Positions 1,837-56,305 of a DNA stretch of 64,000 bases are shown here, in pieces. A model generated the notes under the pieces. The model was given only the letters and a program-made list of their open reading frames with translations. It did not search any database and was not told the DNA's origin. The first letter of the stretch is position 1, and the number at the start of each line of letters is the position of its first letter. This DNA comes from an uncultured bacterium (lineage in GTDB: Bacteria > Patescibacteriota > JABMPQ01 > CAVVCK01). Location of the stretch: contig CAVVCK010000001.1 of NCBI GenBank assembly GCA_963746775.1, positions 418,435 through 482,434 of the forward strand. Direction: 5' to 3'. A program made the position numbers and the translations under genes.

Positions 1837-1954
1837 ATATTTTCATGTCTCCCCTTTAATAAGGGGAGATTAAGAGGGGTTTCGTGGGAAAAATAACAGT
1901 ATTTTTATGCCCACAAAACCTCCCCTACCCCTCCTGATTACAAGAGAGGAAATT

Positions 1955-3112
1955 CTAATATTTCTTACAAAACTCATTAAACTCCCCTAACCCTTCTCTC
2001 AAATCTTTCTCCGAACTTGCAAAAGAAATCCTCACATACCCTTCCATCCCAAAGGCTATACCGGGCACCATTGCAACTTTCTTTTTATTCAATAATTTCT
2101 TACAAAATCTAGTCGAATCCTTATCTATTTTAGAAATATCTATAAAAAAATAAAAGGCACCTTTGGGTTTATTAAAACTAATTTTATTGTTATTATTTAA
2201 AATTTTCTCTACTAAATTTCTTCTCTTTTCAAAAATATTGACCATTTTATTAACAAAATCATTACCGTTTTTTAAAACATCTTCCGCTACGACCTGTGCC
2301 AAAGAACAAACATTGCCAGTTTGATGACTTTGCAATTTGCTTATTAAACTAATTATATCTTTTGAAGTTGCCACATAACCTATGCGCAAACCAGTTAGAG
2401 CATGAGATTTAGAAATGCCATTAACCACAATTACTTTATTCTTTTTCTTCTTCATAAATTGAGCAATAGTGTAAAATTTCTCACCAAAAACTAGCTTTTC
2501 ATAAACATCATCAGTAATCACATAAATATTTTCTTTTATGAAAAACTTGGATAATTCTTGTAATTTCTTTCTAGAATAAACTGCTCCTGTCGGATTATTA
2601 GGTGAATTTAGGATTACTGCTCGAGTTTTATTATTAATAGCTTTTTTTGTTTCTTCTAAATCTGGTCCAAAGTTTTTATCAGTTTTAACTATTTTTATTT
2701 TACCCCCAGCTAATTCAATTTGAGCTTGATAACTTACCCAATAAGGAGAATAAACAATCACCTCGTCTCCGGAATTTAAAATGCATTGAAAAATATTATA
2801 TAAAGCTTGCTTACAACCATTAGTTACGACAATATTTTCCGGTCTATAGGATAATCCATTGTCTTTTTTTAATTTCTTACATATTCCATTTTTCAGAGAA
2901 ACTTCTCCTGTAGTTGCTCCATACCTGGTTTTACCATCATCAAAAGCGGTAGTTAGGCTTTTTTTAATAAATTCAGGAGGCGCCAAATCAGGTTCTCCGG
3001 CTGAAAAATTATAGACCCTAAAACCGAAAGATTTAAGTCTCTTAGCTTCAGCATCTATTTCTAACGTTTTTGATGGCTCTATTTTGGTTACTTTATTGTT
3101 TATTCTTTTCAT
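1955..3112 (-). CDS. class I/II PLP-dependent aminotransferase (aspartate/aromatic/prephenate aminotransferase-like)
   Basis: Motifs NSPNNPTGAVYS and SKSHALTGLRIGY (PLP-lysine region). The 385-aa length is typical for this fold. Confidence 0.75.
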   Translation of the reverse strand: MKRINNKVTKIEPSKTLEIDAEAKRLKSFGFRVYNFSAGEPDLAPPEFIKKSLTTAFDDGKTRYGATTGEVSLKNGICKKLKKDNGLSYRPENIVVTNGCKQALYNIFQCILNSGDEVIVYSPYWVSYQAQIELAGGKIKIVKTDKNFGPDLEETKKAINNKTRAVILNSPNNPTGAVYSRKKLQELSKFFIKENIYVITDDVYEKLVFGEKFYTIAQFMKKKKNKVIVVNGISKSHALTGLRIGYVATSKDIISLISKLQSHQTGNVCSLAQVVAEDVLKNGNDFVNKMVNIFEKRRNLVEKILNNNNKISFNKPKGAFYFFIDISKIDKDSTRFCKKLLNKKKVAMVPGIAFGMEGYVRISFASSEKDLREGLGEFNEFCKKY

Positions 3113-3127
3113 TCTTTAAAAATAAAA

Positions 3128-3148
3128 TACCGGCTATATAAGCCGGTA
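3128..3148 (-). terminator. hairpin TACCGGCT-ATATA-AGCCGGTA with T-rich tract on the minus strand, downstream of the RelA/SpoT-like gene
   Basis: 8-bp GC-rich stem seen in the sequence. On the minus strand it is followed by TTTTATTTTT. Confidence 0.4.
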
Positions 3149-3264
3149 TAATAATAAATTTAAAACAAACCGGCTTAGTCGGTAAAAAAATAGAATTTAA
3201 AAATATTTGAAATTATATTTTTCATAATCTTATTATAATTTTTTATATATTAAAGTCAATTATT

Positions 3265-4611
3265 TTATCTTCCGTTTATTGGCTCATATATATATCCCTT
3301 GGGCAATAATCCTGCTTTTTCTAACCTTTTAAGTTGGTCCGTAGAACCATATCTTTTTATTGGTTTTTTGATTTTTTTATCCGGAATAATTTCACTAAGA
3401 AAATTAGTTTTAATATATTCTTTTATATCATCCTCATTTAGACCGGTCTCCTTGCTTGCCTGTTTGCAAATTAAACACAAATAATACTCTGTAAAAGAAC
3501 CAAACAATCTAGTAAAGGCTGATAATTTTTGTACCCCTTTATAAACAGAATGGTTAGCCATACCTCTTTCATTTTCATTACCGGTAATAACAACTTGTAC
3601 CTCAAAAGACCTTTGCACTCTTACATTTTTTTCTTCCCCATTTTTAGGTAGTTTAATGCGTCCTCTTAATTTTAAAGCTCTAAAATTTTTATTAGAAGTA
3701 TTATTTATTTTAGATATTATTATAGGAATATCTAATTCTTGATCTAAAAATATTTTCTCTAATTGTTTAGTCTGCTCTTCGTTCAAAAACTCTACATTCT
3801 GCACATATTCAGTCTCTGCACCATACTCATCTTTAAAATGACTACCTAAGAAACTTATAAGCTCATAAGCATCTTTTTCCGTTTCAACTTCAAATTTTAA
3901 ACCAATACCATCCCTAACAACTTCATCAGCATTTATTTCGGGATATCTGGCAAACTTAGTTATAATACTATCTCGATTCTTTCCCCTAAAACTAATATCA
4001 ACATCGTTTATCCAATTATTATCAGTCAAAATACTATATTCTTCATATTCTGCATCGGGCGATAATTTTTTGTAAAAATGAGTAACTCCATTGCTATCTT
4101 CTCTAAGTATTCTTCTAAATAAATAATCACTTTCATTGATAAAACCATTCATTTCAGCACTATTAAATTCTCTTTCCGCTAAAACTAAAAAAGATAGCGC
4201 ACAATAATAAGGTGCTAATTTTCTGGAAGAACGAGCGTTTTTCAAAAAATTAACCACCTCAATACCCTTCTTAAATCTTTCTATATTAGTTATATTATCC
4301 GGTAAGCTTAAGTTAAGATAATCAGTCAAATATTCTCTTGCTTCTCCAAAACATCTATTTATTTCATCAATCGCTTCTTCCGTATTATCTACATTGAATT
4401 TCCTTGCCACTAAGTCTGCTAAGTTTTTGTCTTTTATGTCCCCGGGTATAAAATAAGCATCCCCTTCACTAACACTTACTCCTTCTATTGCTATACCATG
4501 ACTTTGAACAACTTTTTTAACTTTTCCTTTATTAAATGCACTAGCATCACGTAACCTTTTATCTGGTTGTATTTCATTTAAAGATATTCTGCTGCTTTCT
4601 CTTTCACCCAT
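3265..4611 (-). CDS. RelA/SpoT-domain (nucleotidyltransferase, small-alarmone-synthetase-like) protein with unique N- and C-terminal extensions
   Basis: Motif order matches the RSH synthetase domain:
- ISFRGKNRDSIITKFAR
- VVRDGIGLKFEVETEKDAYELISFL (compare DLIAIRCVMETQSDVY)
- FKDEYGAETEY
- FEVQVVITGNENERGMANH (compare IEIQIRTxxMHxxAE)
No HD, TGS or ACT domains are present. Confidence 0.5.
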   Translation of the reverse strand: MGERESSRISLNEIQPDKRLRDASAFNKGKVKKVVQSHGIAIEGVSVSEGDAYFIPGDIKDKNLADLVARKFNVDNTEEAIDEINRCFGEAREYLTDYLNLSLPDNITNIERFKKGIEVVNFLKNARSSRKLAPYYCALSFLVLAEREFNSAEMNGFINESDYLFRRILREDSNGVTHFYKKLSPDAEYEEYSILTDNNWINDVDISFRGKNRDSIITKFARYPEINADEVVRDGIGLKFEVETEKDAYELISFLGSHFKDEYGAETEYVQNVEFLNEEQTKQLEKIFLDQELDIPIIISKINNTSNKNFRALKLRGRIKLPKNGEEKNVRVQRSFEVQVVITGNENERGMANHSVYKGVQKLSAFTRLFGSFTEYYLCLICKQASKETGLNEDDIKEYIKTNFLSEIIPDKKIKKPIKRYGSTDQLKRLEKAGLLPKGYIYEPINGR

Positions 4612-4615
4612 ATAT

Positions 4616-4993
4616 TTAATTTATAAAAGCTACCGCTTCAATTTCTACTCTGGCTTCTTTAGGTAAGGCTGCTACTTGCACAGTTGCTCTTGCTGGCGGT
4701 TCATTTTCAAAATATGATCCATAAATTTCATTCACTTTTTCGAAATCAACAAGGTCGGTTAAATAAATAGTAGTTTTAACTATTGATCGCATTTTTGTGT
4801 CCGTAGTCTCTAATATTGCTTTTATATTCTCCATTACTTGACGAGTTTGATTTTCTATAGATCCTTCCACCATATTTCCATCTGGTTTCAAAGGAATTTG
4901 ACCTGATACAAATACTAAATCTCCTCCTAAAACAGATTGTGAGTAAGGACCTATAGCTTGTGGCGCCTTATCAGTTGTAAATACTCTTTTCAT
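4616..4993 (-). CDS. ridA: RidA/YjgF family reactive-intermediate deaminase
   Basis: 125 aa. MKRVFTTDKAPQAIGPYSQSV... and the conserved C-terminal RATVQVAALPKEARVEIEAVA are typical of this family. Confidence 0.85.
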   Translation of the reverse strand: MKRVFTTDKAPQAIGPYSQSVLGGDLVFVSGQIPLKPDGNMVEGSIENQTRQVMENIKAILETTDTKMRSIVKTTIYLTDLVDFEKVNEIYGSYFENEPPARATVQVAALPKEARVEIEAVAFIN

Positions 4994-5011
4994 TTGTTTT
5001 AAATTATTTTT

Positions 5012-5815
5012 TTATACCGCAATATCCCTCTTATTAAACCAAACAGCCCCCACAACAGTACAAACCACAGCTACTCCAATAAATACATAAATAGACAAAT
5101 TATCTATATTATTTTCAATTAAAGCGCTATTTGTATTGTAGTAATAGAAAAATGAGGTATATTTTAAATTTTCCAAATTTTCCTTCAAAGAAGCTGCTAA
5201 ATTTAAAACATACATTAAAATTAATAACCCTCCCGCTAAAGCATAAGCTCTACTTTTTTCTGAAAACATGCCAGAGAACATATAGGATACAGAAAATACT
5301 GCCCAGCCTAACAATAAATTTAAAATAAAAATCTTTACATGATGATCGAAAACATAATCAACCTTGAAAATTTCTGCCAAAGGAATTACTGAAAATACAG
5401 ACATAAAATCAAATACCAATAATATGGCCAAACCTGCTATATACTTTGAAAAATATATTTTTAAACGAGAAATAGGCTTAGCTAATAAAATTTCCGCTGT
5501 GCCTTTTTCAATTTCCCTAGCAATACCGAAACCTGCTAACGATACCATCATAAATATAGCCATCAATGGCCAAACTATACTATAATTTTCTAAAGCTAGA
5601 AAATTTTCAATTTTATCAAAAGAAATAGTTTGGATATTAAAAGCTTTAAAAAATTCCTGAGGATAACTTTCTAATAATTGATTAAATTCAACTGCCTTGT
5701 CTCGAATCGAAGGATACATACTAACATACATCAGCATCATTAAAATTGCGAATAAACAATAGAATATTATAAATACTTTTTTGTCTTTAATTGTCCGCCA
5801 GAAAATAGTGAACAT
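5012..5815 (-). CDS. ABC-2 family transporter permease (6 TM)
   Basis: Hydrophobic multi-span protein. The likely start is MFTIFWRTIKDKK, since the upstream part of the ORF (to 5875) overlaps higA. Partner ATPase at 7076-7951. Confidence 0.55.
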   Translation of the reverse strand: MFTIFWRTIKDKKVFIIFYCLFAILMMLMYVSMYPSIRDKAVEFNQLLESYPQEFFKAFNIQTISFDKIENFLALENYSIVWPLMAIFMMVSLAGFGIAREIEKGTAEILLAKPISRLKIYFSKYIAGLAILLVFDFMSVFSVIPLAEIFKVDYVFDHHVKIFILNLLLGWAVFSVSYMFSGMFSEKSRAYALAGGLLILMYVLNLAASLKENLENLKYTSFFYYYNTNSALIENNIDNLSIYVFIGVAVVCTVVGAVWFNKRDIAV

Positions 5816-5831
5816 AATTTTATTAAAACTA

Positions 5832-6104
5832 TTATGAAAAAGAAATATGTAAATCCGTGCCAAGCGCCTTAGCAAGATGACGTAAAAAAGCTACTGTAGG
5901 ATTATAAGTACCTCTCTCTAAACGTGAAATAGCTGATTGTTTTGTGCCAATTTTTTTAGCCAATTCTGCCTGAGTATAGCCTTTTTCAATCCTTTTTTCT
6001 ATAATCATTTCAATTAATTCAAACTCTGGGCCTAATTCATTATAGGCTTTTTCTATTTTTCTATTTTTGAGTAATTGATCTTTTAATGTTTTATATGATT
6101 TCAT
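5832..6104 (-). CDS. higA: HigA-type antitoxin / XRE-family HTH transcriptional regulator
   Basis: HTH motif GYTQAELAKKIGTKQSAISRLERG. 90 aa. Sits immediately downstream of a decayed HigB/Gp49-like toxin ORF. Confidence 0.7.
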   Translation of the reverse strand: MKSYKTLKDQLLKNRKIEKAYNELGPEFELIEMIIEKRIEKGYTQAELAKKIGTKQSAISRLERGTYNPTVAFLRHLAKALGTDLHISFS

Positions 6105-6181
6105 AGATTTTATTATTATTAACCTCTACAATAGTATAACGTATATGTTATATTTAGTCAATAATATTTTTAGGCATAAGA

Positions 6182-6464
6182 CTACTCTACATTTTTTTTC
6201 AAAGCCTGCTTTAACTCTTTTGAAGGTGTTTTTTGTGATTTTTTAATAAACCCGTGAAGAAGAACTATTTCTCCCTTCTTGAAAATATAAAAAATCCTCA
6301 CCTCTTACTTCCCTCGAATACGAAGTTCAAAAAGTCCTGTTCTAATTTTTTTACTATGAGGTAAACCTAATTTATTGCTAAATTGTTCGTAAAACTTTAG
6401 CAATAGTTTTCTCTTCAAGCTTGGTAATAAATTTTTCAACACTACTTTCAATTTTTATCCTCAT
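6182..6464 (-). pseudogene. higB: HigB/RelE-ParE (Gp49-like) toxin pseudogene: one frameshift plus one in-frame TAA
   Basis: Manual translation of the minus strand gives three pieces:
- MRIKIESSVEKFITKLEEKTIAKVLRTI, then a frameshift.
- QFSNKLGLPHSKKIRTGLFELRIRGK, then TAA.
- EVRIFYIFKKGEIVLLHGFIKKSQKTPSKELKQALKKNVE*
Together they reconstitute a full HigB-like toxin. Confidence 0.65.
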
Positions 6465-6495
6465 AAAAGTATCTGTGTTAGCTAAACTCTACGCT

Positions 6496-6954
6496 CTATT
6501 TATAAATTACAATGACTTCCTTTACTAAAAGATTATTCCTAGAGGCTGGACCAATAAAATCAAACCACCTGTCCTCAAACCAATTAATTTTATACTTTTT
6601 TATTTCTCCAAAATGCGGATCTGCTAAAATTATTTTATCTTTTTCAAATCCCACTATTACAGAATAATGGCTACCTTCTTCGGGAGAAAACCAATTAACA
6701 ATTACAGGTATCTTCTTTTTTACTAACTGTTCTATTTCTTTTATTGAGGAATTTTGTTTCACATAACCCTTTAATCCAAGTTTTTCGGAAGCTTCAACTA
6801 TATTCTTTTCATAACACCCTTTCGTCCTACTCGTTTTAGTTAGTTTTGCTAAATATTTTTCTGACTTATTAATTCCATAACTAGATAAAACCATTTTCAA
6901 TGATGCTGGACCACAACATCCTTTCGATTGTTTAAATAATTTTAATTTTATCAT
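6496..6954 (-). CDS. standalone C39-like papain-fold cysteine peptidase domain protein
   Basis: Catalytic Cys motif KGCCGPASLKMVLSSYG (compare DCGxAxLxMilxyyG) and His motif GSHYSVIVGF, 152 aa. Lies between the ABC ATPase and permease. Confidence 0.55.
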   Translation of the reverse strand: MIKLKLFKQSKGCCGPASLKMVLSSYGINKSEKYLAKLTKTSRTKGCYEKNIVEASEKLGLKGYVKQNSSIKEIEQLVKKKIPVIVNWFSPEEGSHYSVIVGFEKDKIILADPHFGEIKKYKINWFEDRWFDFIGPASRNNLLVKEVIVIYK

Positions 6955-7075
6955 ATATGTCAGTCATTATTAATTATCCGCCAAATTCGCTCTATCCGCA
7001 TATCCGCAATAAATGCATCCAGATAAATCAGTCATTAATCTTACAAATTCAAACTAAAAAAGTAAAAACGTGAAT

Positions 7076-7951
7076 TCAATTCTCATAAAATTCTAAAAAT
7101 ATATCCTCTAAACTAGCCCTCTCGATATTTAAATCCCTCAATTTATACTGACTTAACTTTTGAATTACAGGATTAATATCACCTTTTGCTTTTAAAATTA
7201 AACAACTAGGTAATTCTTGAGCTACTTCTAAACCATTCTTCTTTAGCTCTTCCAAATCAACTTTTTCTTCAAAACAAACCTTAATATCATATAACTTTTT
7301 ATCTTTTAATTTTAAAATATCCTCTTCGGCTACCATTTTACCCTTTTTTATAATGCCTACCTTACTACAAACTCGTTCTATTTCCGGTAAATTATGAGAA
7401 GACATAAAAACAGTTGCCCCTTTCTTAACTTGCTCTTCTATTAATTCATAAACTTCATTCTGTAATAGTGGATCAAGGGCATTGGTCGGCTCATCAAATA
7501 TTAATAACTTTGGTTCGAACATAAAAGCTAGGATAATACCCAATTTCTGACGATTTCCTGATGATAAATTCTTAGCCTTCACCTTTGGATTAAAATCAAA
7601 ACGATTTATTAATTCTTTGGCGATATTATGCTTTCCATTTAACTTCTTAAAATAGTCAATATGCATTTGTCCTGTCCATTTATCATATACTTTCACGCTT
7701 CCTGATAAATAGCCTATGTCTTTCTTTAATTCCACTGAATCTTTTTGTGCATCTTTCCCTAATATTTTAATATTTCCTTCATTAGGTCTCAAGAAATCCA
7801 TTAGACATCTTATAGTAGTAGTCTTCCCAGCTCCATTAGGCCCTAAGAAACCAAAAACTTCCCCTTCTTCTACTGAAAAAGAAACATCATCAATGGCCTT
7901 TGTCTTACCAAAGTATTTCTTTAAATTTTTTACTTCAATTACTTTATCCAT
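7076..7951 (-). CDS. ABC transporter ATP-binding protein
   Basis: Walker A LGPNGAGKTTT, signature LSSGNRQKLGIILA, Walker B LLIFDEPTNALD. Confidence 0.9.
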   Translation of the reverse strand: MDKVIEVKNLKKYFGKTKAIDDVSFSVEEGEVFGFLGPNGAGKTTTIRCLMDFLRPNEGNIKILGKDAQKDSVELKKDIGYLSGSVKVYDKWTGQMHIDYFKKLNGKHNIAKELINRFDFNPKVKAKNLSSGNRQKLGIILAFMFEPKLLIFDEPTNALDPLLQNEVYELIEEQVKKGATVFMSSHNLPEIERVCSKVGIIKKGKMVAEEDILKLKDKKLYDIKVCFEEKVDLEELKKNGLEVAQELPSCLILKAKGDINPVIQKLSQYKLRDLNIERASLEDIFLEFYEN

Positions 7952-8034
7952 AGATTACATTATAGCAAAAATCTTTATTATTTAAAAAGCGATATTTAAA
8001 ATACCGTTTTTTATAATTTTATATTTTTAGTTTT

Positions 8035-9087
8035 TTATTTCTTTAAATTCTCCGGCCTTAACTCTCTCACTTTTTTCCCAGCCTGCCACATTTCCGATTC
8101 TTTTATTTCTTTCAATTCTTCTTCCAATTTTTCCCTATATTTTGGATCGGAATTGGCTTCAAGAGTTATTCTAGTTTCTGTGCCATTTTTAACACTTTCG
8201 TATAAATCCTCAAAAACAGGTTCGACTGCCTCTCGAAATTTTCCCTTCCAATCAAGCGCTCCTCGCTGCGCCGTAGTTGAACAATTAGCATACATCCAAT
8301 CCATACCATTTTCAGCAATCAAAGGAATTAAACTTTGAGTTGCTTCTTCTACTGTTTCGTTAAATGCTTCTGATGGGCTATGACCATTTTTTCGAAGCAA
8401 ATTATATTGCGCTTCCATTATGCCTGCCATCGCCCCCATTAATACTCCTCTCTCACCAGTTAAATCAGACCACACTTCTTTCTCAAAGGTTGTAGAAAAT
8501 AAAAACCCAGAGCCGATAACAATACCCATCGCCTTTACTCTATCTTGCGCCCTACCAGTAGCATCTTGAAAAACAGCATAACTGGAATTAATACCACTAC
8601 CCTTTAAAAAATTTTGCCTAACTGACCTACCAGATCCTTTTGGTGCTACTAATATAACATCAATATCTTTAGGTGGAATAACCTTAGTTTGATCTTTATA
8701 AACGATTGAGAAACCATGAGAAAAACATAGAGCTTTACCGGCTGTTAAATATTTCTTAACATTTTCCCATTGATCCTTTTGTCCTGCATCAGATAATAAA
8801 TAACAAATAATTGATCCTCTCAAACATGCTTCTTCTATTTCAAATAACGTTTCTCCCTCAACCCAACCATCCTTGATAGCTTTATCCCAAGATTTTCCAC
8901 CTTTTCTCTGTCCTACAATTACATTTATTCCATTATCTTTCATATTATTGGCTTGTCCTGGACCTTGTACGCCATAGCCGATTACCGCTACAGTTTCATT
9001 TTTTAATACTTCTTTTGCTTTTTCCAAAGAAAATTCTTTCCTGGTAACAACTTCTTCTTCTGTACCACCGAAATTCATTTTTGACAT
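8035..9087 (-). CDS. ilvC: ketol-acid reductoisomerase (class I KARI)
   Basis: AVIGYGVQGPGQANNMKDNG Rossmann motif, SHGFSIVY, GERG. 350 aa. Confidence 0.8.
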   Translation of the reverse strand: MSKMNFGGTEEEVVTRKEFSLEKAKEVLKNETVAVIGYGVQGPGQANNMKDNGINVIVGQRKGGKSWDKAIKDGWVEGETLFEIEEACLRGSIICYLLSDAGQKDQWENVKKYLTAGKALCFSHGFSIVYKDQTKVIPPKDIDVILVAPKGSGRSVRQNFLKGSGINSSYAVFQDATGRAQDRVKAMGIVIGSGFLFSTTFEKEVWSDLTGERGVLMGAMAGIMEAQYNLLRKNGHSPSEAFNETVEEATQSLIPLIAENGMDWMYANCSTTAQRGALDWKGKFREAVEPVFEDLYESVKNGTETRITLEANSDPKYREKLEEELKEIKESEMWQAGKKVRELRPENLKK

Positions 9088-53144: not shown

Positions 53145-53240
53145 ATTTATCCAATATAATTATTCTAAAAATCTTTATAATATTATCACATAAAAACAAA
53201 AAAACCAACCCTCAGGCTGGCTTATTTTAAAGCTCATTAT

Positions 53241-53355
53241 GTTGGCGACGACCTACTTTCTCCTACCATAATAGTAGGGTAGCATCGGCGCTGGTAAGTT
53301 TTACTTCTGAGTTCGAGATGAGATCAGGTAGTTCCTTACCGCAAGAGCCACCAAC
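53241..53355 (-). rRNA. rrf: 5S ribosomal RNA
   Basis: Reverse complement GTTGGTGGCTCTTGCGGTAAGGAACTACCTGATCTCATCTCGAACTCAGAAGTAAAAC...CAGCGCCGATGCTACCC matches the 5S consensus. Flanked by the processing stem GCTCATTATGTTGG / CCAACATAATGAGC. Confidence 0.85.
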
Positions 53356-53479
53356 ATAATGAGCTCTAATTATCTTTAACAATTATAAAACGCTAGCCAA
53401 TTAGTACGTTGAAATGTTGAAAATGTTGGAATCAAAATGATTTCAACGGTTTCAACGATTACAACGAATTTTAATACTA

Positions 53480-56305
<2,826 letters not shown>

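Follow-up and report, generated by a model that had tools for sequence, protein, structure and literature searches.

Peptidases of the C39 family (MEROPS C39) are known as the leader-processing domains of peptidase-containing ATP-binding cassette (ABC) transporters (PCATs, also termed ABC transporter maturation and secretion proteins, AMS), among them ComA, PCAT1 and LahT, and their known partners are ABC exporters with an ABC_membrane (PF00664) domain, not ABC-2 permeases. The ABC-2 transporters (DrrAB-like) are encoded as a separate ATPase and permease, and they serve in the export of, or in immunity to, several ribosomal peptides. HigB/HigA type II modules consist of two small genes, in which a Gp49 (PF05973) toxin lies upstream of an antitoxin with a helix-turn-helix domain (HTH_3) of the XRE type. 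Here, we focus on a locus in which representatives of these systems stand in a row, at positions 7951 to 5012 on the minus strand of a 64,000-nucleotide (nt) stretch (the window) of contig CAVVCK010000001.1, from an uncultured member of the Patescibacteriota. The order ABC ATPase, C39 peptidase, higB pseudogene, higA and ABC-2 permease, given in an original prediction made from the sequence alone, is confirmed by the open reading frame (ORF) list and a Pfam scan. The locus is probably a two-gene exporter operon interrupted by two passengers, each acquired separately, the toxin gene of one of which later died, and it would then reflect ordinary genome flux and not a new peptide-export machine.

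The exporter is encoded at the two ends of the locus. The ATPase (7951..7076, minus strand; 291 amino acids (aa); Pfam ABC_tran E 1.9e-26) is DrrA-like, with the drrA subfamily as its best NCBIfam match, below cut-off, and the permease (5815..5012, minus strand; 267 aa) is a match to ABC2_membrane_2 (E 1.5e-20); no NCBIfam equivalog reaches its cut-off for the transporter or for the C39 peptidase. Translation of the permease is taken to begin at the ATG at 5815, 16 nt past the higA stop, and not at the TTG at 5875, because its homologs are uniformly 267 aa. The separate ATPase and permease genes are contiguous in relatives, as is characteristic of ABC-2 (DrrAB-like) systems, and the ATPase is 88–90% identical in amino acid sequence to the ATPases of the related loci L005, L089, L094, L095 and L098, while the permease is 72–77% identical to theirs (loci fetched from public data are designated by L numbers). 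A total of 318 permease homologs are found at E<=1e-10, nearly all of 267 aa and mostly from Patescibacteria; a scan of metagenomes with the permease protein gave two weak, unrelated matches only. The gene order of L089 is ilvB-ilvN-ilvC-ATPase-permease-ridA followed by a gene for a 458-aa protein, and the window flanks share it, with ilvC at 9087..8035 on the ATPase side and ridA at 4993..4616 on the permease side.

The spacer between the ATPase and permease genes occurs in four states. It is empty in L089, L094 and L095, where the gap measures 60, 4 and 94 nt, and in the more distant relatives L092/L093 (13 nt) and L103 (1 nt). In L005/L006 it holds a C39 gene only, with gaps of 50 nt upstream and 6 nt downstream and a product 87% identical to that of the window, and in L097–L101, which come from five samples, it holds an intact higB–higA pair only. 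The fourth state, C39 together with dead higB and higA, is that of the window and of its own copy, L001. C39 and higBA are therefore separate facultative insertions at one site, a point that the original prediction missed. Because relatives show the empty site and the permease family is widespread, the exporter is seen to be an old, conserved and widespread two-gene operon of Patescibacteria, probably with a housekeeping role, to which both inserts are facultative additions. With four states of one site in public metagenomes, the locus provides a natural example of how compact genomes of the candidate phyla radiation (CPR) gain and lose small passenger genes. In L101 (1193–1629), the genes that follow higA encode 74 and 58 aa and not the 267-aa permease, which may reflect a broken permease or a contig of poor quality.

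The non-coding sequence upstream of C39 bears on the order in which the two passengers arrived. This spacer measures 121 nt (7075..6955, minus strand), and the 390-bp spacer of the original prediction is instead the dead higB with short flanks. It contains GCGGATA direct repeats, in the form TGCGGATA at 7008..7001 and 7000..6993 and GCGGATAA at 6981..6974; TGCGGATA occurs three times in the 64 kb, twice within these 121 nt. The spacer aligns lengthwise, repeats included, with the spacer upstream of intact higB in L098/L099 (repeat-bearing part in L098 at 2235–2273). Among the fetched loci, clustered repeats in the ATPase–permease spacer are confined to L001 and L097–L101, and in L005, L095 and L089 the spacer is short and unlike that of the window. 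The repeats are a possible operator or promoter of the higBA cassette. Because the sequence before C39 in the window is homologous to the sequence before higB in L098/L099, the simplest history appears to be higBA first and C39 second. Two passenger units, unrelated to each other but alike in orientation, would have entered the short ATPase–permease spacer: the Gp49/HigB–XRE/HigA type II cassette would have arrived with its own 5′ spacer of ~120 nt, and the C39 gene would later have been inserted between that 5′ spacer and higB. A 21-aa ORF in the ATPase–C39 spacer (MTDLSGCIYCGYADRANLADN) was considered and ruled out, as the homologous spacer of L097 has stops in every frame. The spacer also carries one copy (6983..6970) of a 14-nt direct repeat, TGGCGGA[T/C]AATTAA, whose other copy lies at 5800..5787 in permease codons 6–10, so that the entire 1.17-kb insert lies between the two copies; they may be a recombination footprint or a product of chance.

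Comparison of substitution rates indicates that the cargo and its flanks have different ages. Synonymous (dS) and non-synonymous (dN) divergence was estimated by the method of Nei and Gojobori, and the contrast between cargo and flanks was tested, with Fisher p for higA. Between the window and L098, dS is 1.01 for the ATPase, 1.33 for the permease and 1.06 for ridA, but only 0.22 for higA, with a dN of 0.025 (p 2e-8 against flanks). Between the window and L005, dS is 1.39 for the ATPase and 1.33 for the permease, against 0.59 for C39 (p 4e-4). A sliding comparison reveals a block of 90–97% identity at ~6291..5812 with flanks at 70–85%, and HigA is 95.6% identical to the HigA of L097/L098 (94.5% at the nucleotide level), whereas the adjacent permease gene is 78.8% identical in nucleotides. 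Within the one cassette, dS is unequal between higB and higA. C39 and higA are thus younger than the genes on either side, and therefore point to lateral exchange or recombination among related lineages and not to co-divergence with the operon. The higBA cassette appears to be mobile, because a HigA-family cassette of 83% identity lies in another neighbourhood in L102, upstream of a Mur ligase gene.

The toxin gene of the cassette is a pseudogene. The higB remnant (6464..6182, minus strand) derives from a Gp49/HigB toxin of the RelE superfamily and persists as two ORFs, at 6451..6305 and 6301..6182 (minus strand), both of which are matched by Pfam Gp49/HigB (E 3.6e-3 and 5e-10); in the intact L098 ortholog pair, the Gp49 match has E 1e-22. 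Its lesions are defined against the intact 97-aa ortholog found at the same site in L097/L098. A tblastn search with intact higB recovers residues 1–28 at 6464..6381 and residues 32–96 at 6388..6194, in different frames. The frameshift is due to a 17-nt deletion at ~6390/6388 between AGAACA direct repeats, and a CAA>TAA change has created a nonsense codon at 6307..6305; a third difference, of 1 nt beside an A-run near the 3′ end, alters the last residues. The frameshift and in-frame TAA that had been read from the sequence are both present in this alignment, and the pairing of a dead toxin gene with an intact antitoxin gene, likewise claimed, is borne out by Pfam and by the ortholog. Recoding of the TAA was considered and ruled out, since the ortholog has CAA at that codon and a frameshift accompanies the stop. 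The gene order is that of HigBA modules, with a Gp49 (PF05973) toxin directly upstream of an XRE-HTH (PF01381) antitoxin, and an intact twin occupies the same site in the sister population. In contrast to a functional addiction module, in which both genes are intact, the toxin here is a pseudogene, and the locus is a remnant; it differs further in that the cassette sits inside another operon, with the antitoxin and its putative promoter directly upstream of the permease. The codons of higB that remain have a dN/dS of ~0.1 relative to the intact copy. Because there are only two or three lesions and the remaining codons keep this low ratio, inactivation looks recent, and most of the divergence would predate it. 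The site thus contains, within its recorded states, a toxin gene that decays while its antitoxin persists.

It might be argued that the arrangement, or the higB lesions, is an artefact of assembly or binning, caused by sequencing errors or by strains joined into a chimera. The genome is metagenome-derived, several allelic states of the site co-exist in public data, and one of the three higB differences involves a homopolymer run. The two main lesions, however, are a 17-nt deletion and a substitution, which are not homopolymer errors, and both flanks are continuous and syntenic with L089. Above all, the Logan assembly of ERR11571143 (L001), made by a separate assembler, reproduces window positions 1853..8311 exactly over 6,459 bp, with every junction and every lesion. 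Because this independent assembly is identical, mis-assembly of higB is unlikely, and we consider an artefact of any kind to be very improbable.

The antitoxin gene higA (6104..5832, minus strand) encodes an intact 90-aa XRE/HTH_3 protein (Pfam HTH_3 E 7.5e-17) with a dN/dS of ~0.11. Upstream of it, at 6161..6133 (minus strand), a consensus scan identifies a promoter-like element, TTGACT-17-TATACT, which has 10 of 12 consensus matches and is identical base for base in L097; comparable sites number 22 in this AT-rich region, where 17 are expected, and so are not enriched. A palindrome, TATAAC-N6-GTTATA (6152..6135, minus strand), overlaps this element, and together they make up a candidate higA promoter and operator. 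The promoter could also drive the permease gene. Since the promoter-like element and higA lie directly upstream of the permease in both populations, the permease has probably come to rely in part on the cassette for its expression since the insertion; this could favour retention of higA, and is not evidence of co-option. On the history that we favour, higB would have been inactivated by a slippage-type deletion of 17 nt and the CAA>TAA change after both passengers were in place, and higA would persist simply because the decay is recent, so that an intact higA requires no special explanation. It may also persist because its putative promoter and coding sequence lie directly upstream of the permease gene, with which it is probably co-transcribed.

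A different account of higA would have the orphan antitoxin kept for a role unrelated to the transporter, either as an anti-addiction factor against related HigB toxins, whether these arrive on mobile elements or have genes at other places in the genome, or as a general XRE regulator. The intact state and low dN/dS of higA, set against two disabling lesions in higB, would fit such a role, and 510 HigA-like proteins of Patescibacteria at E<=1e-8, many of them 65–83% identical, make cross-reacting toxins plausible. The low dN/dS, however, would mostly pre-date the death of the toxin, as the ratio of higB is also ~0.1 and too little time has passed, and the 64-kb window has no second Gp49/HigB gene. 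We regard a new role for HigA as unlikely.

The second passenger, the C39 gene (6954..6496, minus strand), encodes a stand-alone protein of 152 aa that is recognised by Peptidase_C39_2 (E 2.4e-18) and Peptidase_C39 (E 1.4e-16), with 61 bits against PF03412 (cut-off 22) and 67.5 bits against PF13529 (cut-off 24). Cys14, His96 and Asp112 align with the peptidase domain of ComA (PDB 3k8u, E 5.7e-10), and among 27 homologs Gln9, Cys14 and His96 are invariant and Asp112 nearly so; with a significant profile search and an alignable Cys/His dyad, the C39 assignment of the original prediction stands. AlphaFold2 predicts the fold with a mean local distance difference test score (pLDDT) of 92.2 and a predicted template modelling score (pTM) of 0.88, and the top Foldseek matches, the entries 3k8u, 5xe9 and 6mpz among them, are to ComA, PeiR, PCAT1 and LahT150, with template modelling (TM) scores of 0.73–0.77. 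The PCAT/AMS domains are the best PDB matches in both sequence and structure, and share with the window protein the fold, the set of Gln (oxyanion), Cys, His and Asp, and the size of the excised ComA peptidase domain (PEP) and LahT150. In contrast to them, the window protein is free and unfused, has its gene between those for the two subunits of an ABC-2 transporter of unrelated type, has no double-glycine substrate gene found near it and is only 20–26% identical to the solved domains. Instead of being fused or linked to a PF00664 exporter, it neighbours an ABC-2 type permease (PF12679) with a separate ATPase. A comparable catalytic domain occurs in the papain-like enzymes PeiR, PeiW and PeiP (C71; PDB 8z4h, E 4e-6; Foldseek rank 3–4), but they carry N-terminal cell-wall-binding repeats and act extracellularly on pseudomurein, whereas the window protein, which comes from a bacterium, consists of the catalytic domain only and lacks a secretion signal. 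No signal peptide or transmembrane segment is present, and as the catalytic Gln and Cys lie at positions 9 and 14, too near the N-terminus for a signal peptide to fit, the location of the protein is presumed to be cytoplasmic. Its dN/dS of ~0.1 against L005 denotes purifying selection. Because the catalytic set is intact and the fold is that of C39 peptidases, we infer that the protein would be an active cytoplasmic leader peptidase of the double-glycine type, acting in trans on substrates encoded elsewhere, and would not be a component dedicated to this exporter.

An alternative interpretation takes the ATPase, C39 and the ABC-2 permease to be a three-part system for peptide processing and export, a ‘split PCAT’, with the orphan HigA as its regulator. 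All the genes share one orientation, a site scan finds no terminator-like sites between them on the coding strand, and C39 is intact and under purifying selection; the peptides that ABC-2 transporters are known to handle also speak for it. For HigA, the short distance from its stop to the permease ATG, together with the conserved promoter-like element and its palindrome, would suit a regulator. Against this, the operon lacks C39 in every relative examined other than L005/L006, and members of the permease family occur widely in Patescibacteria whether or not C39 is present. The neighbour of C39 is not of the PF00664 type with which C39 peptidases are known to work. Among 72 loci of stand-alone C39 homologs, 62 have no ABC gene within ~3 kb, and the 10 of 72 that have an ABC protein at that distance are near a rough chance estimate for small genomes; no neighbour family is conserved across the 72. 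The precursor peptide gene that the original prediction had failed to find has not emerged from a dedicated search either: a scan of every ORF of 25–160 aa, covering the 64-kb window and ~680 kb from the loci of 70+ homologs, gave few matches to the double-glycine leader pattern, scattered, not conserved and none near C39, so that neither the window nor the surroundings of the homologs contain a double-glycine leader ORF. As to HigA, the sister population has higA at the corresponding position beside an intact higB, and its position is that of cassette insertion and not of recruitment; a regulatory role for HigA on the transporter is unsupported. A role for C39 as an integral component of the exporter has not been borne out, as relatives have the ATPase and permease without the insert and most homologs lie away from ABC genes, and the three-part system as a whole, with HigA as its regulator, is improbable. 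The locus serves as a warning against reading function from gene adjacency, in that the peptidase owes its seeming place in an exporter to nothing more than having landed there.

Several points weigh against the passenger history that we prefer. The dS contrast comes from small genes, which offer 57 and 90 synonymous sites, and from flanks near saturation. Arrival of the insert en bloc, followed by deletions, is a possible alternative to the stepwise order, and neither a mobility gene nor a clear target-site duplication was found that would account for re-use of the site. The substrate search in the window covered 64 kb of a 547-kb contig. In L005, C39 is packed tightly between ATPase and permease and has been retained for a dS of ~0.6, as a functional partnership would look. 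ABC genes that lie near distant homologs also adjoin C39 above chance (5 of 9, p ~0.02): L061 has the order ATPase, ABC-2 permease and C39, L057 has a divergent ABC-2 pair adjoining C39, and a PF00664 exporter adjoins C39 in the distant loci L016 and L022 only. A working partnership of C39 with the ABC-2 transporter is accordingly possible but unlikely. Slightly less credible still is the broader proposal that C39, ~75% identical between DPANN and CPR, is a shared trait of these episymbionts for a new class of Gly-Gly substrates, which in this lineage would have been plugged into an ABC-2 operon as a functional PCAT analogue on an unrelated transporter fold, coupling cleavage to export, with the spacer as a re-usable landing site for promoter-less cassettes.

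The surroundings of C39 in distant genomes vary. On the DPANN contigs L016 (844–3077) and L022 (3196–5447), the stop codon of a half-transporter gene of ~600 aa, with ABC_membrane and ABC_tran domains, overlaps the C39 start; each is a ‘split PCAT’, in which the peptidase is encoded downstream instead of being fused to the N-terminus. In two clades of distant CPR homologs, C39 is accompanied by a gene for an ATP-grasp protein resembling D-Ala-D-Ala ligase, which is absent from the clade of the window. This gene lies directly downstream on the same strand in L052 (5638–6744), L055 (5404–6477), L069 (5501–6565) and L072 (2643–3680), and 1.3–2.4 kb upstream of C39 in L063, L067, L085 and L086. 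C39 and HigBA were also considered as a conserved three-gene unit, which was rejected: HigA-like genes occur within 5 kb in one of ~80 C39 loci (L027), and there they are not adjacent.

The free-standing C39 peptidases form a large family: a threshold of E<=1e-3 yields 217 proteins, and GTDB species representatives contribute at least 481 relatives. Proteins of this kind in DPANN and CPR are recorded through NCBI/JGI annotations only, as ‘C39 family peptidase’, and searches of a literature library found no description of this stand-alone family in either group. They resemble the window protein in length (148–155 aa) and in their invariant residues; in contrast to it, most have no adjoining transporter and their neighbours vary, a position inside the operon being known only from the window lineage and L005. 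The window protein shares 74–76% identity with proteins of Woesearchaeota/Nanoarchaeota and 40–53% with the majority of CPR homologs. A neighbour-joining tree, drawn without bootstrap, places the window and L005 within a Woesearchaeota/Nanoarchaeota (DPANN) clade, in which a further Patescibacteria sequence, L002, nests separately; this suggests transfer of the gene across the domain boundary. A phage origin was considered and rejected, the best relatives in viral collections being no more than 33% identical. It is this family, highly conserved, catalytically intact, free-standing, common in DPANN and CPR and apparently able to cross the domain boundary, that offers the more useful lead, as finding its substrate could reveal a step of peptide maturation or protein processing specific to ultra-small symbionts. 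Five contigs with C39 genes of the CPR/DPANN type (L014, L049, L051, L068 and L072) are labelled as metagenome-assembled genomes of Gammaproteobacteria or Pseudomonadales, and two others (L018 and L021) as Methanosarcinales; these are probably mis-binned or mislabelled, and the taxa in the C39 tree are to be read with caution.

The remaining features of the window concern its host and the wider neighbourhood. A defence-system reading was rejected, as PADLOC gave no match for C39 or the permease, and those for the ATPase and HigA were generic similarities of the ABC/AAA and HTH kind. Downstream of ridA, an ORF of 448 aa (4611..3265, minus strand) has the 458-aa protein of L089 as its syntenic counterpart; no Pfam hit is recorded for it, and its similarity to TIGR04552 is weak and sub-threshold. 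The window has a G+C content of ~30%, and the homologs of its genes carry Parcubacteria/Patescibacteria labels; these labels, together with a bacterial 23S rRNA gene, mark it as bacterial and CPR-like. Bacterial 23S and 5S rRNA genes lie at 53240..56299 on the minus strand, and the 7.7 kb upstream of them contain protein ORFs and no 16S rRNA gene; unlinked rRNA genes are often seen in CPR genomes.

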